Shown: positions 576 through 16,999 of the stretch, piece by piece
How positions within the stretch are numbered: the stretch's first letter is position 1
Layout of the letters: each line of letters starts with the position of its first letter
From: an uncultured archaeon
Lineage (GTDB): Archaea; Thermoproteota; Nitrososphaeria; Nitrososphaerales; Gagatemarchaeaceae
DNA: 64,000 nt
Direction: 5' to 3'
Assembly: GCA_963817525.1 (NCBI GenBank)
Contig: CAWFOU010000008.1
Coordinates: 64,001-128,000, forward strand
The notes under the pieces: generated by a model
What the model was told of the DNA's origin: nothing
The model's input: only the letters and a program-made list of their open reading frames with translations
Database searches by the model: none
Program-made: the position numbers and the translations under genes

Positions 576-2063
576 CGCACCCATAGCGATCACCCACTTC
601 GGTTCGGGCATCTGGTCGTAGATCAGCTTGAGCCTAGGGGCGAGCTTGCGCGTCACGGTGCCCATCACTATGATGAGGTCGCACTGCCTGAGGGAGCCGA
701 AGGCCTCCAGGATCCCGAAGCGCTCGGCGTCGAACCTTGAGCCGGCGACGGCCCCGACCTCGACAGAGCAGTTGTGGACTACGGCGTTCGAGACGAGGTA
801 GGTGTTGTCTCCGGTTTCCAGATTGTGGACGGGGCCAGAGTAGTCCACCCGTTCCACCTTTCTGATCGGGACTACGATAAACTCGGGAGTCATCCGGAAA
901 TCCGAAACCTTCCTCTCGGAGGTCAGGGTCGAAATGGTGTAGGAATCATGCGTCATCACATCTCGGCCTAGAATCTTGGAAGCGCCTCCGTTTGCCTTTC
1001 TGTTTATCCTGGCGAAAGTACCGAACCTCGCATAAGCAAGCTGGAGTTGGAGAGCCAGCGTCTTCGATGTGGTATCAGCTTTGGCGAACTCAGGGCCTCT
1101 CTTGTCGGTGATCTCGGCTCCGTCGCCCTGGAGGTAGCCCTGAAGGAATGACCTGAGCAGATCGAGGTCCTTGTGGTACAGGATAAAGTCGGGAATCTTC
1201 TTGTTCTCGGCGAGGTGTCCGCACCATTCATGGAACGCGCGGGCCAGGATGGCCGAGGAGAATCTCACCACGGTTGCCGTGTCCCGTCTCTTCACTTGAG
1301 GGGAATATCCCAATGACTTTGCGATCTCGAAAATCCGGGATCTCAGGTTCACTTCGTCGTGGCTCAGAGAGAAGGAGATGTCGTGCCCTACCGTGTCCCA
1401 TCCTTCGGCGACGAAGATTCCTAAGAGCCAAGCGGTGTCCGTATTGAGGGGGAACTCCAGAGGAGGTTTTTCTCCTCGCCCACGGACTATATTCAGTCCT
1501 CGGCTTGTGGCATAGGACGCTAGTGGGATGGATCGGGAATCGACGAACCCCTTGGGCCGGGGAATCAGCAGGCAGTCGTGAGAGCCCTTTGGGTAGAGGA
1601 ACTTGCCATTCTTCTTCATTGGCTGGGAAGCCACGAGGTCTCCGGCCTTCTTCCATACCTTCTCCGAGAGATAGGCGCCCTTCCCGTAGGAGAGCTGCCT
1701 GCCTACCGTGAGGACGGGATGCTCTGGAGTCGCGAGTATCGGGAGCATCCCGCGGCCCGAAATTTTGACTAGTTCCCCCCGATACTGCCTAGAGAACGTA
1801 TCGACTACGTCCACGAGCCCTGTCATGCCCGTGACCTTGTCTTTGACTGCGTACTGCGAGATCGGCTTGTTGTCTCCCAGGACTATGGTGTCTGGTGGGA
1901 CGCAACACGCCGTCTCCAGGTGGACGGGCCAGAGGCTGTAGAGCCTCCCCCAGTTGGCCATGTAGCGGAGGGGGGCCCCGATGGTGTCTTGGAGGAAGTC
2001 GTTGACCCTTCCCACGAGGACGTTGACCTCCCCGGTCTTCGGGACCTGCGCGGACTCTACCAT
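1..2063 (-). CDS. nuoB: NADH-quinone oxidoreductase subunit B precursor carrying two inteins (3' end runs off the window)
   Basis: Manual translation from ATG 2063 is open to position 1. Exteins read MVESAQ...[16 protein letters not shown] / [19 protein letters not shown]...[38 protein letters not shown], typical NuoB motifs. Directly downstream of nuoA. Confidence 0.95.
771..1904 (-). mobile_element. Intein 1 in NuoB (378 aa) with LAGLIDADG homing endonuclease
   Basis: Block A CVPPDTIV, block B ATPEHPV, endonuclease motifs [10 protein letters not shown] and [10 protein letters not shown], blocks F/G VHNLET...NAVVHN followed by Cys+1 at 770. Confidence 0.93.
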
Positions 2064-2428
2064 ATCTCTCGCTTCCCCGCCAGGTGCACGGTGAGGCCCA
2101 TGGGTATCAGGAGGGCGCCGACGAACACGAGCATCATCCAGCTTGAGAGCTGCCCCAGGGCGAGCGGCTGGTAGGCCACCGCCCAGGCGAAGAGGAACAT
2201 CGCCATGACGTCGAAGACGACGAACAGCAGGAGATAGGCGTAGTACTGCATCATGAAGTGCATCTTCCCCCGTCCTCGGGGGACTTGGCCGGCCTCGAAG
2301 GTCTCGTTCTTTATCGGGTTGGGGCTCTTGGGGGCGAGGATCCTCGGGACGATGAGCATTATGCCGGTGAAGAGGATGCCCACGCCGCCCATAACGAAGA
2401 CGGCCGCAACGTTCCCAAAGATCGCCAA
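2057..2428 (-). CDS. nuoA: NADH-quinone oxidoreductase subunit A
   Basis: Three TM helices, KNETFEAG loop, [13 protein letters not shown] motif. Confidence 0.93.
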
Positions 2429-2549
2429 CCTTGGAACTCTCTAGAAGATTTGGAAAGCCGTCGAGCATATTTAAGGCTTGGCGGGCTTGGCTCTGGTAAC
2501 TCTTCGGCGCATGGGCGATTCTATACCTCTCCAAGATATTTGGGATGTG

Positions 2550-2885
2550 TCAAGTTGCTCTGCGCGCGGGGAGAAGCTCCGCACACCCGAAAGGGGGATG
2601 CCGAGCACAGGACTTACGGTCGGATGGAGAGGGACGTGAATTCACCCCCTCGGACTATCCAGGCGGGGGCGGTCAAGGTTCGACCGTTCCCGTCCCTTGT
2701 CGTAGGACGCTACCGTTTCTACACTGGGGAAGAAGGGCTGGCAGGTGAGGCAATGAAGGGGAACGGGACGACTACCCTAACCCTTCGAGTCGACGCCAGC
2801 AAGGCGACTAGTCGGCATGAGCCGAGGAGTTGCCAGAACCTCGGGGTCGACGGCAGGTCGCGGAGCCCTCGCTCGTCGCTCTTGC
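2550..2885 (+). ncRNA. Candidate structured non-coding RNA or leader (unassigned)
   Basis: Long gap between divergent genes with no credible ORF. Many stems: TGCTC/GAGCA, CCC-GAAA-GGG, GAGGG/CCCTC, CGGTC/GACCG, CCGTTCCC/GGGAACGG, and GTCGAC/GTCGAC enclosing hairpins. Strand is a guess. Confidence 0.35.
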
Positions 2886-2949
2886 CTTTAACCCCGAAAC
2901 GCGGCGAAGCGAAACACATTTAGTGACGGTCCGCTCGGCTTGAAGGAGC

Positions 2950-4167
2950 ATGCGCATTGCGATAGTCGGGTGCGGCGTGGCGGGATCTTACCTGCTCAAC
3001 AGGATACCTCCGGAGCATCAGGTCGAGGCTTTCGAGATGCGCGAGAAAGACAAGTGGTGGGCCGTGTGCGCCTGGGGGACCAGCGCACCCTTCATCTCCG
3101 ACCTCGTCAAGCAGGCGGGGCTGAACTTCGAGGACTACATCCTGTTCAGGGGCAAGAGGATGATAGTCGACCCCGGGAACGGGCACGACACTTTCGACAT
3201 CAAGCTCAACGGCCTCGTGACCTTCGACAAGACGAGGCTCTTTGGTGACATGAAGAAGGGGAAGAACATCCACTGGGGAGCCCACCCCAAGGACGTCAAC
3301 GAGCTGAAGGGCTTCGACATGGTCATCGACGCGACGGGCTTCCACAGGTCGATCCTCGGCAAGCTCGAGCACGACGCGGCGATCCCCTGCTTCGAGGTCG
3401 AGGTCGAGGGCAAGTTCCCCTGGGACGACTTTTACATCAAGCCCTACCCCGGCCTGAGCGGCTACTTCTGGTACTTCCCTCTGGGAGAGGGGAGGGGGCA
3501 CATCGGGGCGGGCGACTTCAAGGCGCAATACAGGGGGGAGATCGAGGCGATGGTCAAGAAGTACGACTGGAAGGTCGTTAGGAGGATCGGGAGGCCGGTG
3601 AGGATCCTCGCCCCGAAGTACATGGGGCCGTTCTACACGGAGCCCAAGTGCCTCGCCTGCGGCAACACGATCAACCAGAAGAAGTTCTTGAAGAGCATCA
3701 AGGAAGGCGCGGCCCAGTCGGCAACCGCGAACTTGAGCTCGAGCGGCCAGGCGACCGCCTTCGCAGGGAGAGGAATCTCCGGAGCGAGCGGAGCCCCACC
3801 CACCAACGGGCACGGCTCGTGCGCGTGCTCGAGCCCCAGGCCGGACGGGCCTTTGGTGGTCGGGGTCGGCGAGAGCATAGGCAGCGTCTACCCGCTCCTG
3901 GGCGAGGGGATAATCCCCAGCATGCAGTGCGTCAACCTCTTCGTCGACCACATGGACGACATGGACGCCTACTCAAAGGCGGTCCTGAAGCACTTTGACA
4001 TCTACGCCAAGGTGTACAACTTCATCAAGGCGAAGATGGACGGGAACTTCTCCATGCTCAGCCAGTTCCCCGACCTCGCCGCGATATATTGGCACATGAG
4101 GAGCAACGAGAGGAGGTATGGCCTCGAGACCCACCTCAGAGACATCCTCAAGGTCGTCAACGTCTAA
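2950..4167 (+). CDS. FAD-dependent oxidoreductase, geranylgeranyl reductase-like, with Cys-bounded insertion
   Basis: IAIVGCGVAG, VIDATG, GYFWYFP and VGESIGSVYPLLGEGI motifs. Confidence 0.85.
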   Translation: MRIAIVGCGVAGSYLLNRIPPEHQVEAFEMREKDKWWAVCAWGTSAPFISDLVKQAGLNFEDYILFRGKRMIVDPGNGHDTFDIKLNGLVTFDKTRLFGDMKKGKNIHWGAHPKDVNELKGFDMVIDATGFHRSILGKLEHDAAIPCFEVEVEGKFPWDDFYIKPYPGLSGYFWYFPLGEGRGHIGAGDFKAQYRGEIEAMVKKYDWKVVRRIGRPVRILAPKYMGPFYTEPKCLACGNTINQKKFLKSIKEGAAQSATANLSSSGQATAFAGRGISGASGAPPTNGHGSCACSSPRPDGPLVVGVGESIGSVYPLLGEGIIPSMQCVNLFVDHMDDMDAYSKAVLKHFDIYAKVYNFIKAKMDGNFSMLSQFPDLAAIYWHMRSNERRYGLETHLRDILKVVNV

Positions 4168-4186
4168 CCATAGAAGCGCCGCGGGG

Positions 4187-4609
4187 GTGCGCGCCCACTC
4201 CGCCGTCCACGTGCTCAAGGGCGCGGTCTCCAACGTGCTCGGCCCCAGGAAGTTCACGTTCGGGGAGGAGGGCGTCTTGAAGTTCCGCTCCGACGCCGAG
4301 CTCGGGCCCCAGGAGGTCGGGAAGATAGAGGCCGCGGCGAACAGGAAGATAGCGGAGGACGCGGAGGTGTCGGAGTTCAGCATGGAGAGGCAGGAGGCCG
4401 AGGGGCACTTCGGCTCCGGGATCTATGACCTCGCCCCCGCGCCGGAGACGGAGACGCTCCTCAGGATGGTGAGGATCCCCGACTGGGACGCGGGCTACTG
4501 CCTCCAGGCGCACGTCGAGAGCACGGGCTCCATAGGGGCGATAAGGGTGGACGGAGCGAGGTTCGACGAGGCGCGGAAGGAGGTGGAGCTCAGGTTCCAC
4601 CTTCTGTGA
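4187..4609 (+). CDS. AlaX-S-like alanyl-tRNA editing protein
   Basis: HSAVHVLKGAV (HxxxH) and CLQAHV (CxxxH) zinc motifs. GTG start chosen to avoid overlap with the upstream gene. Confidence 0.75.
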   Translation: MRAHSAVHVLKGAVSNVLGPRKFTFGEEGVLKFRSDAELGPQEVGKIEAAANRKIAEDAEVSEFSMERQEAEGHFGSGIYDLAPAPETETLLRMVRIPDWDAGYCLQAHVESTGSIGAIRVDGARFDEARKEVELRFHLL

Positions 4610-4665
4610 ACGGCCGCCCGGCGATAGCAAAACAGTATAATGGTGCTCAGAAGGCCCTTGGATTT

Positions 4666-4743
4666 GGGCCCGTAGCTCAGTATGGACAGAGCGAACGCCT
4701 CCTAAGCGTTAGGCCGAGGGTTCAAATCCCACCGGGCCCGCCA
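4666..4743 (+). tRNA. tRNA-Arg(CCT), CCA encoded
   Basis: Acceptor stem GGGCCCG/CGGGCCC, anticodon arm AACGC-CT-CCT-AA-GCGTT, T-loop GGTTCAAATCC; TATA-like GTATAA at about 4636. Confidence 0.97.
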
Positions 4744-5046
4744 AAGCTCAATTTAGACTCCGTTTCACCCAAATCCCCGTGACGATGGGCGTGTTCACCT
4801 CATATGCCTCAATTACGGGGTCTTTTGAATAATGCTCCAAGAAGCGTTTGTACTGATTGAACCTGCATGGAAGAATACGGTGGGCCCAGACTAAGATTGA
4901 TGCAGGCCGGAAGGGGTTTCATAGAAACCTAGCGTATCCTATCGAATTCAGTCACTCGAGTTTCAATAGGTACCGCGAGCCTATTTCCTTCGGCTCCGAT
5001 TGCCAAGCGGAGTTCACTCTAGGCGACTTGGCGTGGGCCGAAGTTC

Positions 5047-5649
5047 TCATCGAGGTTGCCTCTCCGTCTTACCTTTCGCCCATACGTATCTGAAGCTCAC
5101 GACGAAGTACAGGGGCATCGTTACGGCGATTGCGATCAGGTTCGAAATCGCGTAAGGGATAAGCAGGTCGGTCGTGGCAAGATAGAGAATCCCCAGATGC
5201 AAAGCGACGCCTGCCAGACCAAGGATGGTAGACTTTGCGAATCTCCCCGCTCTGCCACCTGATTGCCTGTCCCTGAATGTCCTGGAGTCGTTAAGAAGGA
5301 ACTTGGCGCCATGAACGGTAACGAGCGCTGTCGCGCTGGAGTAGAGGTAGTAAAGGCCGGCTGAGGTTAGGGCAACCAGCAACACCTCGTTGATGATGAA
5401 CCCGACCAACTCCGTGCGCATGTACATCCTGAAGCGAAGTCCATTTCCTACAGAGCCCGCTTGAAGGACCGAACCCGTCCGGGCGGTGGTGCGTGCCGGG
5501 GACGGCCCGCCCTGTTCGGGAGAGGGAACTGGTGGCTTCGGACTTCTCGCCGAGCGTTGGGTCCGCAGTCTCTGAGCAAACGCCCAGTATGCGACCCTCC
5601 CGACGAGGAGCGCCGCGGCCACCACGGCGATTATCTCGAAGGACAACAT
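5047..5649 (-). CDS. GtrA-like membrane protein
   Basis: N-terminal TM, then two GtrA-like hairpins, e.g. FAKSTILGLAGVALHLGIL...ISNLIAI...FRYVW. Confidence 0.6.
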   Translation of the reverse strand: MLSFEIIAVVAAALLVGRVAYWAFAQRLRTQRSARSPKPPVPSPEQGGPSPARTTARTGSVLQAGSVGNGLRFRMYMRTELVGFIINEVLLVALTSAGLYYLYSSATALVTVHGAKFLLNDSRTFRDRQSGGRAGRFAKSTILGLAGVALHLGILYLATTDLLIPYAISNLIAIAVTMPLYFVVSFRYVWAKGKTERQPR

Positions 5650-5658
5650 CTAGGCTCC

Positions 5659-6858
5659 CTACCGAATCTGTGTAGAATTGCGCCCGGGACCAGCCAGAGC
5701 TACGCCAGCCTTCCAAATCCCCCGGATGTTGCGCGTGCACGTTATGTCTGAGGTCGGGTCTCCCTCGACCAGGAGCATATCCGCTCGCAGCCCCGGTCGG
5801 AGACAACCCCTGTCGGGCATTCGGAACGCACGTGCGGGTGCGGAGGTCGCTGAGGTAAGCGCCTGCACAGGGGTCAAGCCCTCCTGGACGAGCAGTTCCA
5901 ACTCGCGATGAAGCGAAGAGCCCCGCGGCAGGCCCACGGGGAAGGGTGACGCGTCCGTCCCTGCCAGAACGGTCACACCCGCCTCGGCAATCAGTTTTAT
6001 GGCTTCGCTCATGCCCTTGCGCAGGTGGTTCAGCTCGGGTCTCGCCGGCCAGAGACGGAGCTTCTGCGGATCGATGAATGGTCTTAGGCGGTCGTCTGCC
6101 AGCATCGGCTCGACCTGAGGTTCGCCGACCTTGGTGTTGAGCAGGCAGACTAGCGTGGGAACTACCACGGTCCCGTGTTCGGCAAGAAAGCGTCCGAAGT
6201 CGGAGCCGGCCGAGTCGCCGGCGATTATGTGAGCCAGGCCGTCTGCTCCTGCCTCAACCGCTCGGCGCGCCTTTTCTTCCTGGAGCGCGTGAACCCAGAC
6301 TTGGATCCCGCGTGCGTGGGCGGCGCGGACAATCGCTTCGAGCGTGTCTTCGGTCAGAGACCCACCCTCGGGGGCGTCGTAGACCACCTTGATGAAGTCG
6401 GAGCCCTCTGCTAGGCGTTCGTTCACCCATGACTCCGCCCCTCCGGGACTGTCTACCGCTGGCATATCCTCTAGCCCGGGGAGTCTCTTCAGAATCGCAT
6501 CACTGGCCACTGCGGGCTGGCTGGCGCCGTATACGTCGGCCAAGTCAGAGCTCCGGGCTGCCAGTGACTTTAGGCCCTTCAGACCCTTCCCCGAGCAGCC
6601 CATGTCAATGACGGTCGCGATGCCCCATATGGCCGCTTCATGGAGGGAGTCGGGTCTCCCCAGAGCGTGAAAGTGCGCGTCGAACAGACCTGGGAGAAGG
6701 GTCATCCCCTCAGCATGGACGATGTCTGTACCGCCATGGACCTCAGGACCACTTCCCACCCCGACTATCCGCCCGTCTCTGACGACTACGCTGGCGTCCT
6801 CTAGGATGTTGACTCCGTCGAAGACCCTGGCGTGCTCGATGACCAGAGATTGCGCCAT
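5659..6858 (-). CDS. Amidohydrolase family protein
   Basis: LLPGLFDAHFH, GSDFIKV, VHA, LAH, AGTDA and G...G..ADMLLVEGDP motifs. Confidence 0.9.
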   Translation of the reverse strand: MAQSLVIEHARVFDGVNILEDASVVVRDGRIVGVGSGPEVHGGTDIVHAEGMTLLPGLFDAHFHALGRPDSLHEAAIWGIATVIDMGCSGKGLKGLKSLAARSSDLADVYGASQPAVASDAILKRLPGLEDMPAVDSPGGAESWVNERLAEGSDFIKVVYDAPEGGSLTEDTLEAIVRAAHARGIQVWVHALQEEKARRAVEAGADGLAHIIAGDSAGSDFGRFLAEHGTVVVPTLVCLLNTKVGEPQVEPMLADDRLRPFIDPQKLRLWPARPELNHLRKGMSEAIKLIAEAGVTVLAGTDASPFPVGLPRGSSLHRELELLVQEGLTPVQALTSATSAPARAFRMPDRGCLRPGLRADMLLVEGDPTSDITCTRNIRGIWKAGVALAGPGRNSTQIR

Positions 6859-6949
6859 ACGAGTTCAGACCCTGCCTTTTCCGTATTAGGCTAGTAGCGC
6901 TCTACCGCGCCTCTCCTGAGAACCTCTATAGGGTGCATGCTGAGCTTGC

Positions 6950-7612
6950 GTGACCATGCGAAGGCTGGTCGTCGAGCTACCGGTTGAGGACGTGATTGGG
7001 AAGGGCTCGCACTCGCCGATGGCGATGATAGACTCGGCGGAGGTAGTCCAGATTTTCAAGCAACGCAGGGGAGAGTTCGAGGGAATAGTGAAGGTGTCTT
7101 TCAAGACGCATCCTCCCCCGAAGCTCAAGGACTTGTTTCCTGGTGTCGAGGCGGAGGCCACGCTGCTCAACGAAAACGACGCGACCGGCGAGCGGGCCTA
7201 CTTCGTCAAGGTCAGGGTCGCGAACCCCAAGCGTCAAGTGTTTTCCTTGGGCGAGGTTTCAGGAGGCTACGTCGCGACTCCCTTTGAGATAAGAGGCGGG
7301 ATGATTAGACTCAACTTCATCGGCAGCGCCCTAGAAGTAAAGAGATTCATGAAGGTCATCGACAAGAAGTGGCCCCACTACAAGGTTGCCTCCCTCACGG
7401 ACGCGAGCTTTTCTCTCGACTCACCGTTGGGAGCTCTGACGGAGAAGCAACGCAGGGTTCTGGTGACGGCCTTCAACCTCGGCTACTACGACATGCCGAG
7501 GAAGGTCGACGGTGAGGAGCTCGCGAGGAGGCTCAACCTTGGGGCCTCCGCTCTGGTGGCGCACAGGAGGAAGGCCGAACGGAGGATTCTCGCGAAGATA
7601 ATCAATGGCTGA
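6950..7612 (+). CDS. Bacterio-opsin activator-type HTH regulator
   Basis: C-terminal LTEKQRRVL..AFNLGYYDMPRK...ELA..L...HRRKAE motif; divergent from the amidohydrolase. Confidence 0.88.
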   Translation: MTMRRLVVELPVEDVIGKGSHSPMAMIDSAEVVQIFKQRRGEFEGIVKVSFKTHPPPKLKDLFPGVEAEATLLNENDATGERAYFVKVRVANPKRQVFSLGEVSGGYVATPFEIRGGMIRLNFIGSALEVKRFMKVIDKKWPHYKVASLTDASFSLDSPLGALTEKQRRVLVTAFNLGYYDMPRKVDGEELARRLNLGASALVAHRRKAERRILAKIING

Positions 7613-7769
7613 GAATAGACGGGAGGCGGTCGGCCACGAATTGCATGAATCGGGCGCCGTTAAGTAATCGGAGCTGGAAATGAGCTAAAATGGGGCCGGA
7701 AGGGATTCTAAACATTACCGACCAGAGGTTTGTGAATCCTTATAGGTAAGAAATTTACTACACCGGAGC

Positions 7770-8033
7770 ATGACTGAAGCATCGGAGCTTCGCACGGTCA
7801 CCGTATCCGAAAAGGGCCAGGTGGCCATCCCTGTCGACATCAGGAGGAGGCTGAACATTCGAAAGGGCCAGACGCTGGTGCTTCAAGTCAGCGACGATAA
7901 GCTGCTGATCGCCAAGTCGGAGGAGGTCTCGAAGAAGATGAGGGACGAGTTTGAGCATCTTCTCAGACTCTCAGAGAGAAGCGCGAAGGAGTTATGGGAG
8001 AACGAGAAGGATGCAGTCTGGGACAGCGCTTGA
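7770..8033 (+). CDS. AbrB/MazE-family antitoxin
   Basis: VSEKGQVAIPVDIRRRLNI.KG motif; overlaps the toxin gene. Confidence 0.88.
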   Translation: MTEASELRTVTVSEKGQVAIPVDIRRRLNIRKGQTLVLQVSDDKLLIAKSEEVSKKMRDEFEHLLRLSERSAKELWENEKDAVWDSA

Positions 8034-8361
8034 GCCGGGGCAGGTGGTGTTGGTGCCCTTCCCATTCACCGACCTATCTGAAGTGAAACGTCGTCCGGTG
8101 CTGGTCCTCTCGAATCGGCGTCACAACAGCAGTTCTCGGGACTTCATCTGCTGTGGGATAACTTCGAACCTGGCAAACAGTCGGAACTCTGTCCTGATAG
8201 ACCCAATGGAGATGGCCGAAGGTTCAATTCCCGTGCAGAGTAGGATCAAGTTCGACAAGGTCTTCACCTTGGAGGGGAGTCTAGTAGTCAAGGCTCTCGG
8301 AAGGGTCTCGAAACACAAGCTAGCCACGGTCAAGCGGGGATTGATTTCTCTTCTTGGTTAG
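8011..8361 (+). CDS. mazF: PemK/MazF-family toxin
   Basis: GQVVLVPFPFTD...KRRPVLVLSN and ITSN motifs. Confidence 0.9.
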   Translation: MQSGTALEPGQVVLVPFPFTDLSEVKRRPVLVLSNRRHNSSSRDFICCGITSNLANSRNSVLIDPMEMAEGSIPVQSRIKFDKVFTLEGSLVVKALGRVSKHKLATVKRGLISLLG

Positions 8362-8493
8362 CATCATAACGGTTACAAAATTCGAACCACACCAACTGGG
8401 GCAGCAGTCTTCAACACATGGCCGATTTTATCCCAAGAGTAATTTCTCCATTATGCAACTTAGAGATTTGGCAGGCTTTCTGGATCGAACGTT

Positions 8494-8582
8494 CGAATCT
8501 ACGGGGGCTCGAACGCTCGGCCCGAGGCACGCGAGCCCGAAAAATGACCGAGGACGGCCACCGAGTCCCACCGGGCCCGCCA
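8494..8582 (+). repeat. Right-end motif plus tRNA-Arg 3' end copy 1 (att-like)
   Basis: 17-nt exact tRNA end at 8566-8582; the preceding 69 nt match 13301-13369 at 58/69 positions. Confidence 0.9.
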
Positions 8583-9084
8583 TCTTTTCACGCTCAACCA
8601 GTTTGTGAAGAGCCGAATTCTTGCCTGGGCCCGCTTAAATTATTAAGCGAATCCTGCGAAATGCGGTCTAGAGATTTTGAACTGTGCGCCCGCGGGATGC
8701 CTGCGACTATCTTCCCCAATTCAACCTCCTCTCAAGACGGTTCAACTGGGATCACAGCTACTGGTGGCCTTTTTCCACAAAGCGTCATCCTGCGAATATA
8801 GTCTTGATGGACTGTCGATTCATGCTTTTTTACCCGTGGCAACCTTGACAGCGGTTGCCACGGAGGAAACACCCTGAACCTGTTGGAGTTTATGAAAGCA
8901 TGACCCTTCAGGGTCCCTCCGCCCCAAAGTAGGACGGGACGGCGGTTTGGGTCCTACCCAAGAGAACGGGGACGGTCGGCGCTGCTGAGACCGAGCCACC
9001 GCCACCGAACAGACCGAGCACCCGTTCCATAGAATAGGTTGATATTGCCCTGCGGCTTTCGTTGGACCATCGGATGGATATGTC

Positions 9085-10272
9085 TTGGCTGCCACTGGAA
9101 GGGCCGCTGTCTTCGTCTCTGCGCTCATCCTCCTGGCCGCGGTAGGGACCGGATTCTACTTTACCCAGACCCTCAACTCCTCTCAGACTGGGACCACCCC
9201 GAGCACAGAGTTTACGCAGACGGGAGTCGTCTCCTCGACCGAGGTCACCAACGCGTCGTTGGGCCTCCGGCTATCTCTCTCGGTAAACGCCACCGTCATC
9301 CCCAGCGAGGACGTGATTGAGATCAACGCCTCCGTGGTCAACACGAGGACGACGGCGAGCAACTTCACGGCGTCCGATGACTGGGCGGCCCCGGGGTTGA
9401 CGGAGGGAGCGTGCAACTATGGCAACGCCACCAACAAGCTGTTCGATCCAATCGGATTGGACGTCTTCAGGGGGGACTACGGGATGGACAACCTTTCGAG
9501 CGCAGGGCAGCCCATAGATTGGTGGCCATTGGTGGAGTGCCCCGCCGACGGGGTCTCGGTAGGGACGCAGTATCTCCCGCTGGAGAACATCACGAGCTAT
9601 TCTCTCCTCCCCGGGAACGACAGCGGAACTTATGCGGGCTACTACGTCGCCTCTACCACCTCCCCGCCCCCCGTGTGTGGGGGCGGGGTCTGCACGTACA
9701 GCCCCAACGTCACGAGGACGTACGCAAAGGGGGTCTTCCCCACGAGGATGGCCTTTGAGCAGACGATAAACGCGGCCAACGGGACGGAGGGCTTCTACAG
9801 CTCGCTGGGCTCGTCCCTCCCTGCGAACTACACCCTGGTTGCGGGCGACGAGTGGGGCCAGCTGACCTTCATCCACTTCCAGGTAGTGGCATCCAACAGC
9901 ATCCCCAAGGTGGGGAGCTTCCTCGCATGGGGAGGGTGCGCGGATTCGTACCGTTTGAATGGGACGGCGTATGCAGAGCCGTGCACGGCCTCGGAGCTAA
10001 GTGGCGCCCACGTCTTCGACTGCGCCAGCGCGGCCGCTTCGCAGGCCGGATGCTCGGTCACGCTCGTCGGTTCGGGCACCTTCCCCGGGTCAGGCCAGGT
10101 CAACTCACCGATCCTGAACAACACGTTAACGGTCTGGTTCCCTTACACCGGTGGGGCTGCCCAGCCCGCTGGGACGAACTGCTACTTCCAAGTGGCGCAC
10201 CACTACACGGGCTCTCCCTACGGGCACTGCTACGCGCTCAACTCGACGGCCTTTGTGATTGGGATGTATTGA
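9085..10272 (+). CDS. Secreted or membrane-anchored Cys-rich glycoprotein, unknown function
   Basis: N-terminal TM, many N-x-S/T sequons, paired cysteines, YTLVAGDEWGQ motif. Confidence 0.75.
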   Translation: MAATGRAAVFVSALILLAAVGTGFYFTQTLNSSQTGTTPSTEFTQTGVVSSTEVTNASLGLRLSLSVNATVIPSEDVIEINASVVNTRTTASNFTASDDWAAPGLTEGACNYGNATNKLFDPIGLDVFRGDYGMDNLSSAGQPIDWWPLVECPADGVSVGTQYLPLENITSYSLLPGNDSGTYAGYYVASTTSPPPVCGGGVCTYSPNVTRTYAKGVFPTRMAFEQTINAANGTEGFYSSLGSSLPANYTLVAGDEWGQLTFIHFQVVASNSIPKVGSFLAWGGCADSYRLNGTAYAEPCTASELSGAHVFDCASAAASQAGCSVTLVGSGTFPGSGQVNSPILNNTLTVWFPYTGGAAQPAGTNCYFQVAHHYTGSPYGHCYALNSTAFVIGMY

Positions 10273-10337
10273 ATTTAAATCAAGAGCTCGGGTTTATCCC
10301 ACCGCCCGCGGCTTCTGACCGCAGGATACGGGTTTCT

Positions 10338-10718
10338 TTGGAAGTTCGAGAGACGAATAGGTCATTGCTTTTTTCGGGTTCATTACTAATCGCTTTCAAC
10401 GTGGTGGTGAACATTCTGGACTTGACAACGACGTTCATTGGTTTCAGAAGAGGCTTGCTCGAACAGAATTTCGAGGCTTCGTTCCTGATGAAAGTTGTTG
10501 GCAACGAGTATCTCGGGGCCATAATCCTAAAGGTGTTATTCTTCTCTTTCTTTGGTCTTGCCTATTATTCCATGAGAGGATTTGAGAAGAAGGATGAACG
10601 GAGACGCGGAGTTGTTTTTGGACTGTTGTTTCTTGACTTCGCGTTGATTTTTACCGCGTTGTGGGTAACTGAGATAGTCGTGGGCAACCTCATCGCTCTA
10701 GGGGTCATTGGCGCTTAG
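10338..10718 (+). CDS. Small membrane protein (DUF5658-like)
   Basis: NILDLTTT...GLLEQN motif followed by TM helices; TTG start. Confidence 0.65.
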   Translation: MEVRETNRSLLFSGSLLIAFNVVVNILDLTTTFIGFRRGLLEQNFEASFLMKVVGNEYLGAIILKVLFFSFFGLAYYSMRGFEKKDERRRGVVFGLLFLDFALIFTALWVTEIVVGNLIALGVIGA

Positions 10719-10729
10719 ATTGAGTTTGC

Positions 10730-11035
10730 TTAAACCGGATGGGGCCGTTCATCCTGTTCCCCCCTTTCTTTGGTGGGAGGGTGGACTTGGAGGCTTGCTT
10801 GAAGCTTCTTCACCGCGGCAATCATGTCCCTGAATGAAAGAGACTCTCCACGGCATAGGAGAACCCACTTGTCTTGGAGGAAAATTCGAAAGTAGTCGGC
10901 CTGAATTAGCGAACGTTGAATGTCCAACTGGTAGGAGTATGTCAGGACCGAGTCAATCAGTATGTTGCCTCTTGGCCTGGCGAAGAACCAATCATCCAAT
11001 TCTTCGTCGTAATGCTCGAATTGATTCCTGAGCAT
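10730..11035 (-). CDS. Hypothetical protein
   Basis: Protein-like ORF filling the gap between two genes; no recognised motif. Confidence 0.35.
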   Translation of the reverse strand: MLRNQFEHYDEELDDWFFARPRGNILIDSVLTYSYQLDIQRSLIQADYFRIFLQDKWVLLCRGESLSFRDMIAAVKKLQASLQVHPPTKERGEQDERPHPV

Positions 11036-11050
11036 GCGATTCCACAGTGA

Positions 11051-11861
11051 GTGAGCGACGACATGCGACCTGAGGAACAAGAGAAGTGGAAGCGAAAAAG
11101 GTTGGGTCGAGCTGCCGACGTGCGGCAGAAGTCTCGCAGCGGACTTTCGCACGTCGCTGTAGCGTTTTTCGCAGTTCTACTTGTCGGGGCAGTTGCGGCT
11201 GGACTGTACCCTACTGGAGTCGCATCCCCCTCCGCAGCCGCTTCGTCCACAAGTTCCTCTACCGGCTTCATCCATACGACTTCGTCCGTAAGCAATGGCT
11301 CAACCACAACCATCGTCGGAGGCAGCGGGGATTCGGGAGAAATAGGTCCCCCTCCTATCATCACGATATTGTTTGGAGCACCCACGATCGACCACCCAAC
11401 GACCACAGCAGTCCCCGCTGACACCATGCTCTGGACCAGCTGGACGCTGAACAGCACCATGACCATAGACGGAGTCCAGTCCGACATCGAGGCTCTACCG
11501 AGCAGTTGGGGCTCTAACCTGATGATAGCCGTCTACGTCGACGGCAAGCTCGCTGGCAACAGCACATACGTAATCGCTCCCAATTACGGCGGTCTCGACA
11601 CGGCGATAATAGACGCACCTGAAAATAATGCGATCCAAGGCGGAATCATGGGAAACGCTGCCCAGCCTGCGGGCGCGGGTAATCTCGATGGCAATCCTCT
11701 CCAATGCATCGGTCGACCCACACTTGAACAGCGGTTCGGTCCCCACTTACGAGGTCACGCTACCTCCTGGCTCTGGGTTCCCTGCTCAGCTGCCTACTCC
11801 GACCACGACGCTTTCCGATTCGGCTGTGGAGATATGGGCGTTCGATGAAACACAGCAGTGA
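11051..11861 (+). pseudogene. Membrane-anchored surface protein with apparent frameshift near 11677
   Basis: TM plus Ser/Thr linker. After QPAGA the natural-looking continuation (VISMAILSNASVDPHLNSGSVPTYEVTLP) is in the frame of ORF 11628-11861. Confidence 0.55.
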
Positions 11862-11943
11862 ACTACAATGGTGACGCTCGACCGGGAAGCTTGCCCGACA
11901 CGCGTAGCCGACCGTCGTTGGTCCGACCGGAACTTGGCTGGGT

Positions 11944-12013
11944 TCGCTTAATATTCTAAGCGACTCCCACCGGGCCCGCCATCATTACTTGCCTAGTGTC
12001 GGATTCGAACTTC
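11944..12013 (+). repeat. tRNA-Arg 3' end copy 2 with upstream hairpin and left-end motif
   Basis: TCGCTTA-6nt-TAAGCGA hairpin, core at 11965-11981, CCTAGTGTCGGATTCGAACTTC at 11992-12013. Confidence 0.9.
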
Positions 12014-12301
12014 GCTGCTGATGCCATCGACCGACGCAGGGGTGTCTCGCGTATTCCTATACATTGGTTGTGCGGATTAGTCTGCCAGGATTCGGGCTTG
12101 GCCTAAATGACTCGCCGAGCCGCGTCGTGCCTGCCGATCCCGCGCGACACCCCACTACTTCCCCCTTGTCGCAATCTAGAAGGGGACGGCCACGTCCCCA
12201 GGGCGGTCGCCCTTCCCGTATCCGGTTTGCTCCGGGATAGCTGCTTTGTCAAGGAACACAGACCTCAGGCCTCAAACCCCTTGGGCCAGCACTACAACCT
12301 G

Positions 12302-12541
12302 ATGGACGATCAGGAACTCAAGGAACTGGAGGCGCGGCGCAGAGTCCGGTATCTCTGGGACGAGGTCGTCCACCTGAGGCGCGTCGCCGAGAACCGCCGC
12401 CGGATCCTCGACCTGACGCGGACCCTGTCGGACTACGACCCCGCGGTCGAAAAGGCGGAGCTCGAGCAGGCGGAGCGCCAACAGGCCTGCGCCTGGATCC
12501 AATATCTTGACCTCAACAGGAAGGTCTACATCTCAACCTGA
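12302..12541 (+). CDS. Small helical hypothetical protein
   Basis: 79-aa ORF from ATG with GC3-rich codons; charged and helical. Confidence 0.55.
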   Translation: MDDQELKELEARRRVRYLWDEVVHLRRVAENRRRILDLTRTLSDYDPAVEKAELEQAERQQACAWIQYLDLNRKVYIST

Positions 12542-12590
12542 CATGAAGGCCAATATCCGTAAATTGAGCCCACTCCCCAAATCCTAAAGG

Positions 12591-13169
12591 ATGAACGTGC
12601 GAGAACGCGAGAGCGTCTTCATCGGTGTGGGCGCCGGCCTGATGTTGATTGTCCTCCTCGTCCTGCAATCCTCCATCGGCAGCGGTCTTCTCAGCACGAG
12701 GACAGTGACTACGACCGCAACGGTGACGACGGAATTACCGGCTGGAGACTACAACCTAGTCGCCAGTGCCTATACAAATCATCTCTCAGTACTCGGCTCC
12801 AAGAACGTATCCGCGCTCCTAGGTGGGTATGAGAACAACTCGACGGTCGAGTGGACGGGAGAGGCGGCGGGACAGCAGGGAAACTATACTGGGGAAGGCA
12901 TTGGTAGACTGCTTACTACCTTCCTACGGTATATGACTAATTTTACCTTGTCAAACGAGACCCAGCCATTAGTGGGCGTTCAGGGAAGATATTGGGTCGT
13001 CAACTCGACTTTTCACTGGGCTGGATATAGCACCGTCGACGGCATCCTAACCGGAACGGTAGCTGCTGAGGATTCGTACGTCCATGTGGGCAATACATGG
13101 TTGATTGCAAGAGAGACGTGGACGTGGCTTTTATTCACCTGTCAATATCCAGATTGTTTTGGCATATGA
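12591..13169 (+). CDS. Membrane-anchored NTF2/SnoaL-like fold protein
   Basis: N-terminal TM and Thr linker; NVSALLGGY...YTG...WLIARETW pattern. Confidence 0.65.
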   Translation: MNVRERESVFIGVGAGLMLIVLLVLQSSIGSGLLSTRTVTTTATVTTELPAGDYNLVASAYTNHLSVLGSKNVSALLGGYENNSTVEWTGEAAGQQGNYTGEGIGRLLTTFLRYMTNFTLSNETQPLVGVQGRYWVVNSTFHWAGYSTVDGILTGTVAAEDSYVHVGNTWLIARETWTWLLFTCQYPDCFGI

Positions 13170-13300
13170 CCGGGAGGCTTATCATGGAAGTTCGGCTATT
13201 TCCTGTCGCAGAAGACGTGGGATCCCACGTGGTTTTTGGCATTCCCCCGCCAGCAGTTCTGAAATGGTTTCGCGAGCCCGGTACTCGATTGGCAGATTGA

Positions 13301-13420
13301 CGAATCTAGCGGGGCTCGAACCCTCGGCCTATGGCATGCGAGCCCGAAAAACGACGGAGGCCGGGCACCAATCCCACCGGGCCCGCCACCAATCCATACC
13401 TAGTGCCGGGTTCGAACTTC
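13301..13420 (+). repeat. Right-end motif, tRNA-Arg 3' end copy 3 and left-end motif
   Basis: Core at 13372-13388 (19-nt match counting the preceding AA). CCTAGTGCCGGGTTCGAACTTC at 13399-13420 is 20/22 identical to 11992-12013. Confidence 0.9.
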
Positions 13421-13481
13421 TTGAGCAGGCTACAGGAAATTTGACATGATTCATATTCATGCACTATCGGACGTTTGAGAG

Positions 13482-14189
13482 TTGGAACCTGAGAGGCCCG
13501 CCGAAGAAACCCCTTACGGGGACCGGCTGATCGACGTCATCAAATCCGCGGAGTGCGATCGGATAGGAGTCATCCTCAGACACTCCGTGAGGGAACAAGG
13601 TCGGAGAGGCGAGGTCGCAAATCCGAATATGGTCGCTGGGTTGATCCCTCACGGGCACAGCGAGTCGAAGAGGTTTGGCGAGTCGCTCCCTGCAGGCTTC
13701 AACCTCGTCGTTGGCTACAGTCCCGTCCCTCGCTGCGTAGAGACGGCCACCGGCATAATGCACGGCTACTCGCACGTGGACTCTGGCAGCATATCAGACG
13801 TCGGAATTGACGATTCCTTGGCCGTGACCCACTTTTTCGCCAAGGACACAAGTGCGATGGAGTCGTATAGGGGAAAGGTGGGAGGACTGCCCTTCCTCAG
13901 AGAATGGCTGGACGGGAGCCTCCCTGTGGGGATGATGAGGCTCCCTTCGGAGGTGAAGCAGTTCGCTGTGAGCAGCGTCATCAGGGACTTGAAGGCAGGT
14001 CGGGCCCCGCTGCTGCGGTTATGGGTAGGGCACGACTACGGGCTGATAGTCCTGATCGAGACGATCTTTGGCGGACGATTCAAGGAAACCAGGTGGATAC
14101 CGTACCTGGACGGCATAGTGTTTTGCCTGAGCAGAGGGGGATTGCTCACCGCAGCCTGGGACGGCGAGATTGTAAGGCTAGAAGCTTGA
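13482..14189 (+). CDS. Histidine phosphatase superfamily protein
   Basis: LRHS, SP..RCVETA and VGHD motifs. Confidence 0.85.
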   Translation: MEPERPAEETPYGDRLIDVIKSAECDRIGVILRHSVREQGRRGEVANPNMVAGLIPHGHSESKRFGESLPAGFNLVVGYSPVPRCVETATGIMHGYSHVDSGSISDVGIDDSLAVTHFFAKDTSAMESYRGKVGGLPFLREWLDGSLPVGMMRLPSEVKQFAVSSVIRDLKAGRAPLLRLWVGHDYGLIVLIETIFGGRFKETRWIPYLDGIVFCLSRGGLLTAAWDGEIVRLEA

Positions 14190-14232
14190 ATCCGACTGCT
14201 TCGGAACGCGTCTTCGAGAGCCGTCGTCACCC

Positions 14233-14745
14233 CTAGCCGGACTTGACTATGACTGTCGCTGACATCCACGAGTGATATTCGCAGTAGTAGTCGTAGGTGC
14301 CGGGCGACGAGAAGGTGAAGGTGTAGGTCCCCCCGGGGACCAGGTTTCCGGAACTTACACTCCCGTTCCCGGACACCGAGGTGACTGTGTGGGCCACGGT
14401 GTCGTCGTTGGTCCAGACGACGGTGTTGTTCACCCCGATCACCACCGTGACCTTGTCCGGCGCGTAGCCCGGCGCGGCGCTTGGGCCTGTTGATGCCCCC
14501 TTGGGGATCTCGACGCTCGTCGCTACTGGGCTGGGAGAGGCTGACGACGCCGAACTTGTGGCCGTGCTGGAGCCTGAAGAGGCCAGCGAGGTCGAGGTGG
14601 TGCTCGGCAAGGGGGTGACTACTGTGAACGGCCCGGACGTGAATGCCAAGTACGTGACCCCGGCCATGACCAAGAGGATTACTACAAACGCCAACAGGAA
14701 GCCGCCGTAGTCGCCAAAAGCCGCCCTTCCTCTCCGGCCACGGAG
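14233..14745 (-). CDS. Membrane-anchored cupredoxin (plastocyanin-like); start uncertain
   Basis: Type-1 Cu ligands in HTVT and YYCEYHSWM; N-terminal TM and Ser/Thr linker. Confidence 0.88.
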   Translation of the reverse strand, partial: LRGRRGRAAFGDYGGFLLAFVVILLVMAGVTYLAFTSGPFTVVTPLPSTTSTSLASSGSSTATSSASSASPSPVATSVEIPKGASTGPSAAPGYAPDKVTVVIGVNNTVVWTNDDTVAHTVTSVSGNGSVSSGNLVPGGTYTFTFSSPGTYDYYCEYHSWMSATVIVKSG

Positions 14746-14979
14746 GGTCGTCGGGCTCTTATTTCCACGGTAGCCCCGGCACGAACTCGCCGGAAAGCTT
14801 CTGGGAATCTTGGCCAGTGGTGGGACGCATCTGCCACCATCTTGCTCTTTCGCGGTCGGAGACACGACGCTATGCCACCCTCGTCGAGAGGGGCGGCGAC
14901 GCTGTCGATTTAAGCGTTCAAGGGGCACGGCGGGGCCGCCTGGCGTTTCGCGACCAAGCCGCATCCGGACGAGGCTGCG

Positions 14980-16404
14980 CTATGGATCGGGCTCGACGCC
15001 ATCCTCGCGGAGGGGAGCATCGTTCGTGGTGGCTTTCTGAGCAATTGCTTCCTTTTCGCCGGGTGGTTCTGATGGATCCGCGCCTCGACCCCTCCTAAGG
15101 TTCGTGATCGAGAGCGACCCTGGGATCTTGTTCCAGAGTAGGAACTTGGCCTCCCAGAGCGACCGGATGACGCCGATCCAGAACACTATGCTCGAGGGGG
15201 TGTTGTCGGTCAGCACGGAGCTGACGCTCTGCGCCCCATAGGGGACGGGGGCGGCGACGGCCACGATAGACGCGTGGTGGAAGAGGTCGTAGTAGCTGAT
15301 TCCAAAGGGGAGGAGGACCTCGGAGACGCCCAGGATTATTATCAGGGTGTTCAGACTGTCGAAGCAGAGGAACTCCCAGTAGCTGTCGCTCACAGGCAGG
15401 AGGACGAAGAAGGGCAGCAGAAGCAGGCTTAGTTGCGGCGGGGAGATGTAGGTCGCGAAGACGTATCCGAACGTCGCGACGAAGGCGAAGACGAGGGGGT
15501 CGCTGGTTGTCCTCCGAAGCCTCATCCACAGCATCCCGGCCAAGAAGGCGGAGAAGACGGCTATGGGGACCACGTGGCGGTATGGTGAGTAGGGGTTGAG
15601 GAGGATCGCACCCATCCAGGAGTCCTCGATGTTCCAGTTGTAGAGGTACTGCCAAGACTGAAACCAGAGGTTCGAGTTGAGGAGCAGGAACGGCGCGTTG
15701 ATGAGGGCGTAGGTCCCCCCGCCCGCGGCCGCCAAGACTACCATCTCCTTCTTCGTCCTCTCCGCGAAGAGGAGGCCGACCGCGGGGACGGCGGTGATGA
15801 AGTTCGTCGCGGCGGAGAGACCGAAGAGCACGCCCGCCCAGAACCGGCTCCCGCCTCTGAGATACAGGCGGATGGCGGCCAGCGTGAAGTAGAGGCCTAT
15901 GATGTACCAGTTCAGGAGGGTCATGATGACGAAGGTCGGGGTTACGACGAAGTACCAGAACATCCTGGCCCGGGATGTCCCCCTCATCTCCGCGAGGCCG
16001 ATCAGCTCCCTGAGGGAGAGGAAGGTCGGGACTGCCAGGACGGCCGAGCTGACGAGGTACGTGTTCCTGAGGAGCTCCCCAGGGAGGAGGGCGGCCAGCC
16101 TCCCCATGGTGTAGAAGAACATCGAGGTCAGGACCGGATATTCGCTGAAGGACTGTATGTAGGGGATGGTGAACTTGCACGGCGCGATGAGAGGGCCGTA
16201 CTCCGACGGCGGCAGGATCTGGCATACCCTCTCCTGGAATAGGTAGGTGAGGCTGGTGTAGACGTTCCCGCCCCCGTAGGGGAGGTGGAGCCAGACGCCG
16301 AAGAGGTAGAGGGCCGCCGCGGTGCAGTAGAGGACTCGCTTGTATCGTCGGTCAGACAGAGCGGCTAGGCGGTCGCTGAGACGGATCTTCCCAACACCTG
16401 TCAT
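14980..16404 (-). CDS. Polytopic membrane protein, GT87/GT-C-like glycosyltransferase
   Basis: EYPVLT motif, about 10 TM helices, PPQ motif near the C-terminus. Confidence 0.7.
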   Translation of the reverse strand: MTGVGKIRLSDRLAALSDRRYKRVLYCTAAALYLFGVWLHLPYGGGNVYTSLTYLFQERVCQILPPSEYGPLIAPCKFTIPYIQSFSEYPVLTSMFFYTMGRLAALLPGELLRNTYLVSSAVLAVPTFLSLRELIGLAEMRGTSRARMFWYFVVTPTFVIMTLLNWYIIGLYFTLAAIRLYLRGGSRFWAGVLFGLSAATNFITAVPAVGLLFAERTKKEMVVLAAAGGGTYALINAPFLLLNSNLWFQSWQYLYNWNIEDSWMGAILLNPYSPYRHVVPIAVFSAFLAGMLWMRLRRTTSDPLVFAFVATFGYVFATYISPPQLSLLLLPFFVLLPVSDSYWEFLCFDSLNTLIIILGVSEVLLPFGISYYDLFHHASIVAVAAPVPYGAQSVSSVLTDNTPSSIVFWIGVIRSLWEAKFLLWNKIPGSLSITNLRRGRGADPSEPPGEKEAIAQKATTNDAPLREDGVEPDP

Positions 16405-16621
16405 GCAAGGCGCTTCTCTTCGAGAAGAATTTTCGCGACGCGACTATATCTGTTTGCCTTCCGCTTCGACGGCGGGCGCCGGTGGAGGCGCGAGCCTCGG
16501 GCTCAGCTGTCGTCGCCGGACTGGCTCTTCTTCTCAGCCCAGCGCTTGGCGATTTCGACTTCAGGGGGCATCTCCCTGGACGTCGCGACGCTCCCGAGGT
16601 AGACGTCGCCAGTGTTCCCGT

Positions 16622-16924
16622 CTATGGAGATGCGGTCCCCCTCGTGGTCTTCTTCAGGACGTAGTCAAAGAACCGATCCGTCGTCCCATCGTCTGAAGTC
16701 CATTCGGCGCGCAGCCTGGTCCTCTTTTCCACCCTCCTGAGCGTCGACAGGAGGGTCCGGTTCAAGTCCTTCGCGCTCTCGCCCTCCATTTCCGCCTCGA
16801 CGATGAACTCGCCGTTCACCTCCTTCACGGAGCCCTTCGCAATCGCTCCCTGCAGGGCGGGCTTCACCGCCTTCGGGCTGGCGCTGCTTACCCGAGCCAC
16901 CAGCTTGAAGCGCCTGTTTGCCAT
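16622..16924 (-). CDS. Small hypothetical protein
   Basis: Clean 100-aa ORF with host-like codon usage. Confidence 0.65.
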   Translation of the reverse strand: MANRRFKLVARVSSASPKAVKPALQGAIAKGSVKEVNGEFIVEAEMEGESAKDLNRTLLSTLRRVEKRTRLRAEWTSDDGTTDRFFDYVLKKTTRGTASP

Positions 16925-16999
16925 GGCAGCGGCGAGGGAGCGCTGGCTAGAAAGGCTTCGCCCCAGGGTGAGCCCGGAATCGCCCCGTCGTGGAGGGCT

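Follow-up and report, generated by a model that had tools for sequence, protein, structure and literature searches.

Integrase-less modules bounded by copies of a tRNA-Arg(CCT) end in a soil Nitrososphaerota archaeon: a probable site-specific accretion island

Introduction

How does a row of unrelated genes come to be divided by exact copies of the end of a neighbouring tRNA gene, with no recombinase encoded anywhere along the row? The question is raised by a 64-kb stretch of DNA (hereafter the window; G000:C8:64001-128000), in which such an array follows a tRNA-Arg(CCT) gene. G000 is a metagenome-assembled genome (MAG) of 2.8 Mb in 15 contigs, 95% complete and with 8.75% contamination. Its host is a soil Nitrososphaerota archaeon: the stretch is found in soil metagenome runs, and the close relatives of the integrases of G000 are named Nitrososphaerota in their sources. 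An initial annotation, made from the sequence alone, saw in the array small non-autonomous cassettes with standard ends, mobilised in trans, stacked at one tRNA and integron-like in function. Here we argue that the locus is a compact, non-autonomous form of the known tandem integration of mobile elements at tRNA genes; on balance, we regard it as a tandem site-specific accretion island at tRNA-Arg(CCT) whose modules were probably moved in trans.

Results

Repeats of the tRNA end and the modules between them

The 17-mer TCCCACCGGGCCCGCCA (the core) occurs on the forward strand in four exact copies, at 4727, 8566, 11965 and 13372, spaced by 3839, 3399 and 1407 bp, all as initially annotated. A fifth copy was not found at up to two mismatches, and four matches were reached in none of 100 shuffles. 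Core copy 1 (4727-4743) is the final 17 nt of the tRNA-Arg(CCT) gene recognised by ARAGORN and by Rfam (RF00005, 63.9 bits, with a non-canonical pair marked), so that the array displays direct repeats copying the 3' end of the target tRNA, a hallmark of integrated mobile genetic elements (iMGEs). The features of the locus, with open reading frames (ORFs) named after Pfam where it gave a match, are the following.

4666..4743, + strand: tRNA-Arg(CCT), ending in core copy 1
4744..8565, both strands: module 1 (3822 bp), left end L-E at 4744-4828, right end R1 at ~8465-8565
5047-5649, - strand: GtrA-like membrane protein, module 1 (Pfam)
5659-6858, - strand: amidohydrolase, module 1 (Pfam)
6950-7612, + strand: HTH_10 regulator, module 1 (Pfam)
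7770-8033, + strand: MazE, module 1 (Pfam)
7951-8361, + strand: PemK/MazF, module 1 (Pfam)
7693..8582, + strand: MazE/MazF sub-module with R1 and core copy 2 (blastn to genome G008)
8566..8582, + strand: core copy 2, exact 17-mer match
8583..11964, both strands: module 2 (3382 bp), left end L-A (T-run, palindrome 8632-8649), right end R2, the palindrome 11944-11961
9085-10272, + strand: secreted protein, module 2 (ORF; Pfam nothing or weak)
~10370-10718, + strand: membrane protein, module 2 (ORF; Pfam nothing or weak)
10730-11152, - strand: ORF, module 2 (Pfam nothing or weak)
11051-11848, + strand: ORF, module 2 (Pfam nothing or weak)
11965..11981, + strand: core copy 3, exact 17-mer match
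11982..13371, + strand: module 3 (1390 bp), ORFs 12107-12541 and 12591-13169 (signal-peptide-like), right end R1 at 13301-13371
13372..13388, + strand: core copy 4, exact 17-mer match
13389..14197, + strand: module 4, right end lost; left end L-B, then ORF 13482-14189 (235 aa)
14198..16621, - strand: distal part with coreless end; cupredoxin-domain protein 14233-14964(-) and 474-aa protein 14980-16404(-) (Pfam)
16622..16924, - strand: anchor gene on the far side of the site, 118 nt (G012) and 187 nt (G006) from the tRNA at empty sites

The fourth segment, initially annotated as open-ended, proved to be a truncated unit ending at 14197, and the inserted DNA runs on to ~16600. No core was seen in 13400-17200 at up to four mismatches, and the distal part is without a terminal core; these 2.4 kb may be either an eroded module or rearranged native DNA.

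The Pfam search covered 14980-16404 and the 13 main ORFs that lie from 5047 to 14964. It recognised the GtrA-like domain, amidohydrolase, HTH_10, MazE, PemK and cupredoxin, gave nothing or weak unknown-function matches for the rest, and found no recombinase or transposase domain among the array ORFs. A tblastn search of the whole window with 13 tyrosine recombinases of the genome and genus gave no match at E <= 0.01. The annotated absence of integrase and transposase ORFs is therefore upheld, and the segments are equally free, by tblastn, of the decayed integrase fragments that would have marked them as ordinary eroded islands. The 235-aa product of module 4, without a match in Pfam and PDB sequence searches, is histidine-phosphatase-like by language-model look-alikes only (Atlas His_Phos_1 lead 0.97).

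Other origins for the repeats were considered and set aside. Split or permuted tRNA halves were rejected, as the core copies have no T arm and Rfam (E <= 1) sees a single tRNA in 4000-15000. A split integrase of the kind found in Sulfolobus spindle-shaped viruses (SSV-type) was likewise rejected: the ORFs lying over cores 2 and 4 (8418-8801 and 13105-13449) switch frame at the core, and resemble each other because the underlying DNA is alike. IS200/IS605-like miniature elements were suggested by the palindromes of module 2, which form an inverted repeat (8632-8660 / 11934-11962), but tRNA-derived 17-nt repeats associated with integrases fit site-specific recombination better.

Chimeric joins are another conceivable source of the repeats. 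Such an assembly or binning artefact would suit a 15-contig MAG with 8.75% estimated contamination, in which, moreover, a 12-kb contig-end stretch is identical to a contig of another species (see below). However, a 17-nt repeat is below the usual assembly word length, and core 1 is spanned by contigs covering 4161-4863 and 4460-4903, core 4 by one covering 13224-13656, all free of differences and taken from separate runs. The same junction types also appear in independent assemblies: R1 followed by the core and module 4 on metagenome contig L177, and R1 followed by the core and L-E in G008, L178 and L179. Bridging contigs and repeated junctions together argue against misassembly, to which we give very little credence.

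Occupancy of the site in related genomes

Positions 2000-17000 of the window were compared by BLAST with 30 relatives and the loci were then inspected. The variant of the tRNA seen in the window is carried by seven genomes forming a subclade, in which the site is filled as follows.

G012: empty, anchor gene 118 nt past the tRNA
G006: empty, anchor gene 187 nt past the tRNA
G018: 2.5 kb between tRNA and anchor gene, no second core
G009: 4.6-kb integrase-bearing segment, second core, module 4 copy, third core with one mismatch
G008: toxin-antitoxin cassette of ~1 kb (corresponding to window 7693-8582) from the tRNA to a core decayed by two mismatches
G014: 1.7-kb module closed by R1 and a core, integrase gene from 64 nt on, contig end
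G000: the window array

The site is thus polymorphic for presence and absence, with an intact empty form in G012 and G006, as expected of an iMGE. These empty sites define the insertion in G000 as 4744 to ~16600, and the distal part (14198..16621) is absent from them. The content and order of the array differ in every occupied relative examined, so that the comparison of content and order proposed by the initial annotation came out against a fixed island.

Recurrence of single modules

Seven occurrences of module 4 were inspected, two in G009 and one each in the window, G012, G018, G014 and G006, six genomes in all. The six other copies, from five genomes, are 83-87% identical to the window copy and sit, like it, behind tRNA genes, three in all: Arg-CCT, Arg-TCG and one intron-bearing tRNA that was named by no tool. 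The upstream neighbours are unrelated at each place, and the similarity begins at the core in six of the seven, the exception being G006, where it begins 39 nt inside (blastn) and the core is degenerate. A common right end extends ~45 nt past window position 14197 in five of the six other copies (the second G009 copy has only its first bases), which indicates that module 4 of the window is truncated. The ORF is intact in all copies except the frameshifted one of G018, with a mean ratio of nonsynonymous to synonymous substitution rates (dN/dS) of 0.18 and dS values of 0.24-0.55; a single-gene comparison with one adjacent host gene in the same genomes gave a dS of 0.64-0.95.

The MazEF sub-module recurs in G008 as well, directly behind tRNA-Arg(CCT) (C6:124099-124994) and at C1:47959-48815, with ~81% identity (blastn). 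Its left edge carries the motif ATGGG-C-GGAAGGGAT in all three copies (locus L024 at ~5925, window at ~7683-7705, locus L018 on G008:C6), and on G008:C1 (L024) this motif is met again at ~6830, just past the decayed core, as though a second type of repeat bounded the toxin-antitoxin unit.

G000 itself contains many further junctions of this kind. A scan for the 9-mer CGGGCCCGC gave 86 matches, and reading of their flanks left ~16 orphan core junctions with recognisable ends (R1, R2, R3, L-A, L-B and L-D), clustered behind tRNA-Ser(CGA), behind tRNA-Arg(CCG), at C1:1150515-1153357 and at C7:131236-152666. Further core-bounded arrays of G000 lie at C7:984140-1001132, C7:131236-152666, C1:833147-834094 and C1:762843-771194; among them are one with a full integrase beside a 26-nt repeated tRNA-like end, one that starts at a tRNA and has a frameshifted integrase, a 938-bp module behind tRNA-Ser(CGA) and a segment of ~8.3 kb behind tRNA-Arg(CCG).

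End motifs shared by unrelated cargo

The modules resemble one another at their ends. A right-end motif had been annotated as 58 identical positions out of 69 before copies 1 and 3; the likeness is real, and in our alignment the 69 nt ahead of core copies 2 and 4 agree in 56 of 70 columns (79% over 84 nt by repeat search, 85% over 89 nt by blastn). The annotated left-end motif holds at copies 3 and 4, where 11992-12013 and 13399-13420 match in 20 of 22 positions, each beginning 10 nt past its core. Overall, ~90-118 nt of right end are common to unrelated cargos.

This right end, R1, was found in five copies in three of 23 genus genomes and in six copies on five metagenome contigs. All 11 adjoin a core of the CCCAC type or a decayed form of it, and they close at least five unrelated cargos; the end motifs sought by the initial annotation thus do exist elsewhere, as do modules behind other tRNAs. 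None of the R1-ended modules observed contains an integrase, and tblastn found no integrase similarity on the R1-bearing metagenome contigs. A 14-mer of R1 searched against genome contigs gave 120 unrelated matches, mostly bacterial.

Left ends are likewise shared. L-E of module 1 is 81% identical to the left end of the integrase-bearing G009 element at the same tRNA, L-A stands also after tRNA-Ser(CGA) and other cores in G000 and relatives, and the left end of module 3 matches the DNA following tRNA-Arg(CCG) on its 3' side (G000:C1:771077-771194), with 87% identity over 119 nt. The pairings encountered are L-E with R1, L-A with R2, and L-B' with R1.

Small, often one-gene modules with standard right ends and a common core, carrying a toxin-antitoxin pair, secreted proteins and single enzymes, are what one would see if the tRNA end served as attI, R1, R2 and R3 as folded attC-like sites, and a resident integrase captured single-gene cassettes for the benefit of the host; in G012:C5 and G000:C1, moreover, an integrase gene is oriented away from the first core of an array. 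R1 contains inverted repeats (R2 being a short palindrome), but the consensus fold of five copies (alifold) had no net covariation, with a covariation penalty of +1.64 and compensatory change in 3 of 20 pairs, and gave no support to R1 as an attC-like site or as a small RNA. No integrase adjoins the window array, the array integrase of G012 and G000 is part of a mobile element of at least 12 kb identical in two species, and the genes lie on both strands, up to five per module. An integron-like platform is accordingly improbable here, and the integron-like function first proposed is not sustained, as the locus shows no fixed arrangement of integrase, attI and promoter and its modules hold one to five genes.

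Two further likenesses were noted at the module ends. R1 (13311-13342) resembles in inverted orientation the variable and T-arm region of the tRNA (4699-4730) at 24 of 32 positions (75%); part of the likeness is a T-arm-like hairpin whose stem is mismatched at the corresponding position. The palindrome GATTCGCTTAA-N4-6-TTAAGCGAATC recurs beside attachment (att) cores, in the window at 8632-8649 and 11944-11961 and in G000 at C7:151765-151802, in the flank of C7:152666, and at C1:59316, C1:833147 and C1:1151929; as a right end it precedes the core by ~3 nt, within a left end it follows the core by ~50 nt, and it looks like a candidate protein-binding site.

A candidate integrase family

An integrase of its own, usual for an iMGE, is lacking in the window array and present at the same tRNA in G009 and G014, inside the array. 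In G014 it is an N-terminal fragment that begins 64 nt after the second core, at the contig end. These genes belong to a family of ~430 aa, whose members inside arrays of G009 and G012 measure 429-441 aa. It is present in 21 of the 23 genus genomes, and the completeness of the two in which it was not matched is 90% and 59%. For the tyrosine recombinase sought by the initial annotation, this family, present in arrays at this very tRNA, is a candidate. The integrases that adjoin such arrays belong to ordinary mobile elements.

Pfam and NCBIfam gave no match for the array integrases, and PHROGs only phrog_1 'integrase' (E 5e-5). Nevertheless, they have their full architecture in common with a PF00589-positive paralog, R150, K195, R272, H299 and Y307 are invariant in all nine sequences, and a profile of the family matched archaeal XerA in the PDB (4a8e, E 5.8e-7; 5hxy, E 0.0026). 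On the strength of paralogs, alignment and PDB profile, the 429-441-aa ORFs are tyrosine recombinases with the catalytic R-K-(H/Y)xxR-H-Y set, and members of the family would act on the cores of the window.

G000 encodes three full-length integrases (C7:691916-693205, C1:1153337-1154746 and C7:999620-1001041), in addition to one frameshifted copy and fragments next to other cores. The first is 91% identical to the G009 copy, the second lies beside a core and the third beside a repeated tRNA-like end. Around C7:691916 no flanking repeat of at least 14 nt matching a tRNA end was found. In other genomes, the examined close relatives of this integrase, which have 78-89% identity to the G009 copy, stand ~50-130 nt from tRNA-Ile or tRNA-Leu; this indicates that target choice is variable within the family.

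One core-bounded element may have moved lately. G000:C1:1153345-1165344 and G012:C5:1-12000 (loci L167 and L025) are identical over all 12,000 nt, while the two species-level genomes otherwise differ by ~20%. The stretch reaches a contig end in both, and its other end falls exactly at a core, beyond which the genomes diverge. It encodes the 441-aa integrase, a ThiF/E1-like protein, a trypsin-like peptidase, M78-Macro and DUF7002, a defence-like set. Very recent transfer of a core-bounded element or shared contamination would explain the identity, and the break at the core favours transfer. A scan of viral contigs for the 17-mer gave seven loci, namely three tRNA-Arg(TCG) genes of other organisms and four chance matches, none of them with an integrase of the ~430-aa family.

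A mismatched T stem in the host tRNA

The T stem of the window tRNA-Arg(CCT), GAGGG/CCCAC, contains one A.A mismatch. All seven subclade genomes share it, those with empty sites included, as does metagenome contig L177. The syntenic tRNA of nine other genus genomes (G015, G007, G010, G016, G003, G005, G011, G013 and G001; loci L190-L199) has an intron and a paired T stem, GAGGG/CCCTC in six, GTGCG/CGCAC in two and GCCGG/CCGGC in one, and no additional core or integrase match lies downstream of it within the 1.9-17.9 kb available in each. Within the genus genomes compared, the mismatched stem is therefore confined to the subclade that holds the arrays. Several R1 copies have GTGGGCGAG-TCCCAC immediately before the shared part, and the intron-bearing tRNA at G000:C1:1055185 has the natural end ...TCAAATCCCACCGGGCCCGC.

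We infer that strand exchange takes place at or 5' of the 3' strand of the T stem. A CCCAC-adapted element would once have recombined with tRNA-Arg(CCT), and its later excision would have left a scar: with exchange at or 5' of the mismatched base, the final 17 nt of the tRNA would be element-derived, which would explain the A.A mismatch.

Some observations concern tRNA genes more widely. The tRNA-Arg(CCT) of the subclade has no intron, and its anticodon stem is unlike that of the intron-bearing gene of other genus members. Many tRNAs of G000 bear introns and are overlooked at default settings (24 genes without introns allowed, 41 with); one is the tRNA-Leu(TAA) with a 14-nt intron at window 45487-45587, reported by ARAGORN with introns allowed and unreported by the Rfam tRNA model at its gathering score. 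Upstream of the array, a stretch of ~110-120 nt at 2727-2847 recurs at 77-86% identity in G000 (C7:114637, C11:1215) and in many genus genomes, and matches no Rfam family; it may be a small RNA, a leader or a miniature repeat.

Discussion

Accretion, erosion and movement in trans

We propose the following course of events. Lineage-specific tyrosine integrases of ~430 aa would recombine a circular element with a tRNA 3' end, each integration adding one core copy (...TCCCAC-CGGGCCCGCCA), and repeated integrations would stack elements head to tail. The present stack would be the outcome: four core-bounded modules (3.8, 3.4 and 1.4 kb, and a truncated one of 0.8 kb) and a coreless distal part, with no recombinase encoded. 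The modules, which are non-autonomous, retain cores and ends typical of their families: R1 or R2 at the right, and at the left L-E, L-A or L-B. Their excision and re-insertion, one at a time or several together, is probably the work of integrases encoded at other loci of the genome, recombining any two cores. Such movement may still be occurring. Of the initial proposal of non-autonomous cassettes mobilised in trans, what stands is that no integrase is encoded, that modules and ends recur, and that candidate integrases exist in the genome; movement in the present day is the conjectural part.

The same segments might, on the other hand, be immobile remains of autonomous elements that have lost their integrase, their similar ends being the inherited att arms of related ancestors. 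Loss of the integrase after integration is the standard reading for archaeal elements without one (PMC8371274). An ordinary eroded island of this sort would account for the truncated module 4 and its coreless distal neighbour, for the frameshift in G018, for the decayed cores of G008 and G009, for the age of the module copies, for the lack of joints in read-derived contigs, and for the L-E end that module 1 has in common with the integrase-bearing G009 element. It fits less well with other observations. No segment holds an integrase relic, nor does any R1-ended module seen hold an integrase; the three distal cores are perfect although R1 copies differ at ~20% of positions; units of 0.8-1.4 kb with one or two genes recur with intact, selected ORFs at different tRNAs and beside different neighbours; and clean empty sites that retain the tRNA variant point to entire arrays having been lost precisely. 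We consider plain erosion possible but doubtful as the full account.

Several results nonetheless weigh against accretion with movement in trans. The module copies are old (the G009 pair of module 4 is 91% identical, the toxin-antitoxin pair of G008 81%), and nothing shows recent transposition of the modules. An excision circle or empty-site joint was not seen in short contigs of four soil runs at ~4x depth, the runs of one study, which contain 56-76% of the stretch. The best match in G000 to the G014 integrase standing at this core is 60% identical over 225 aa, and the relatives of C7:691916 examined adjoin tRNA-Ile or tRNA-Leu, not tRNA-Arg(CCT). Free pairing of left and right ends is unlike the prediction for one integrase with fixed arm sites, and the dS contrast between module 4 and the host is based on one host gene. 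Finally, the lost right end of module 4 and the 2.4 kb without a core beyond it indicate that erosion is also in progress.

A bolder version of the preferred reading is that the modules form a tRNA-anchored cassette system of soil Nitrososphaerota: small modules with standard ends, specialised for integrases acting in trans, and shuffled singly or in blocks among tRNA 3' ends that share ...CGGGCCCGCCA, with an exchange that overwrites the tRNA end and so left the A.A scar. R1 and L-E would serve the CCCAC core, and R2, R3 and L-A other cores. We offer this only tentatively; it would be a functional archaeal counterpart of gene shuffling by integrons or by cis-mobilisable elements (CIMEs).

Significance and comparison with known systems

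Surveys of archaeal integrated elements mark them by the integrase gene, and integrase-less modules of 1-4 kb are invisible to such surveys. They are common in the genus, with ~16 orphan core junctions in G000 alone, and their cargo consists of toxin-antitoxin pairs, secreted proteins and single enzymes. If moved in trans, they would be a path of gene flux in soil Thaumarchaeota that has gone uncounted until now. A narrow literature search brought up no account of arrays built in this way from integrase-less modules. The system would lend itself to testing: the core measures 17 nt and the right end ~100 nt, and the integrase family is compact, with known catalytic residues. In the mismatched T stem of the host tRNA, the position of strand exchange would have left a rare visible trace.

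In function, CIMEs are the nearest analogues of the window modules, and integron cassettes are looser ones. CIMEs, known from streptococci, are flanked by att sites, have no recombination genes and depend on the integrase of a neighbouring integrative and conjugative element (ICE), with which they take part in site-specific accretion; they are bacterial, linked to conjugation and moved in cis with the neighbouring ICE. The window modules are similarly att-flanked and devoid of recombination genes, whereas the window array has no autonomous neighbour, such neighbours being found in the arrays of G009 and G014. Integron cassettes also form arrays of small units, each ending in a recombination site, with the tyrosine recombinase encoded outside the unit. 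In contrast, the window array has no intI/attI/Pc platform, unrelated conserved genes lying upstream of the tRNA; its repeat site is a tRNA 3' end, and in modules 1 and 2 the ORFs, 4-5 per module, are divided between the two strands.

Genomic islands of Dehalococcoides are likewise integrated at a gene for a small structured RNA, there the transfer-messenger RNA (tmRNA) gene ssrA (PMC3146451). Such islands form head-to-tail stacks in which repeats of the 3' end of ssrA mark the borders, and they generally have a recombinase of their own. They differ from the window modules in being bacterial and in that recombinase, of which the window modules have none.

By kind, the window array resembles the tandem arrays of archaeal iMGEs. 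As in the window, the iMGEs of Thaumarchaeota and other archaea integrate in the 3' part of tRNA genes, copy the tRNA end as they do so, use one site repeatedly to form arrays, and occasionally have no integrase (PMC6563490, PMC8371274). Their published sizes are 2.6-140 kb (median 16.8 kb; PMC6563490), and a missing integrase is attributed to gene loss (PMC8371274). The window array differs from them in that all its units are without integrase and measure 0.8-3.8 kb, against the published 2.6-140 kb, in that its units share a right end across unrelated cargos, and in that single modules recur behind several tRNAs.

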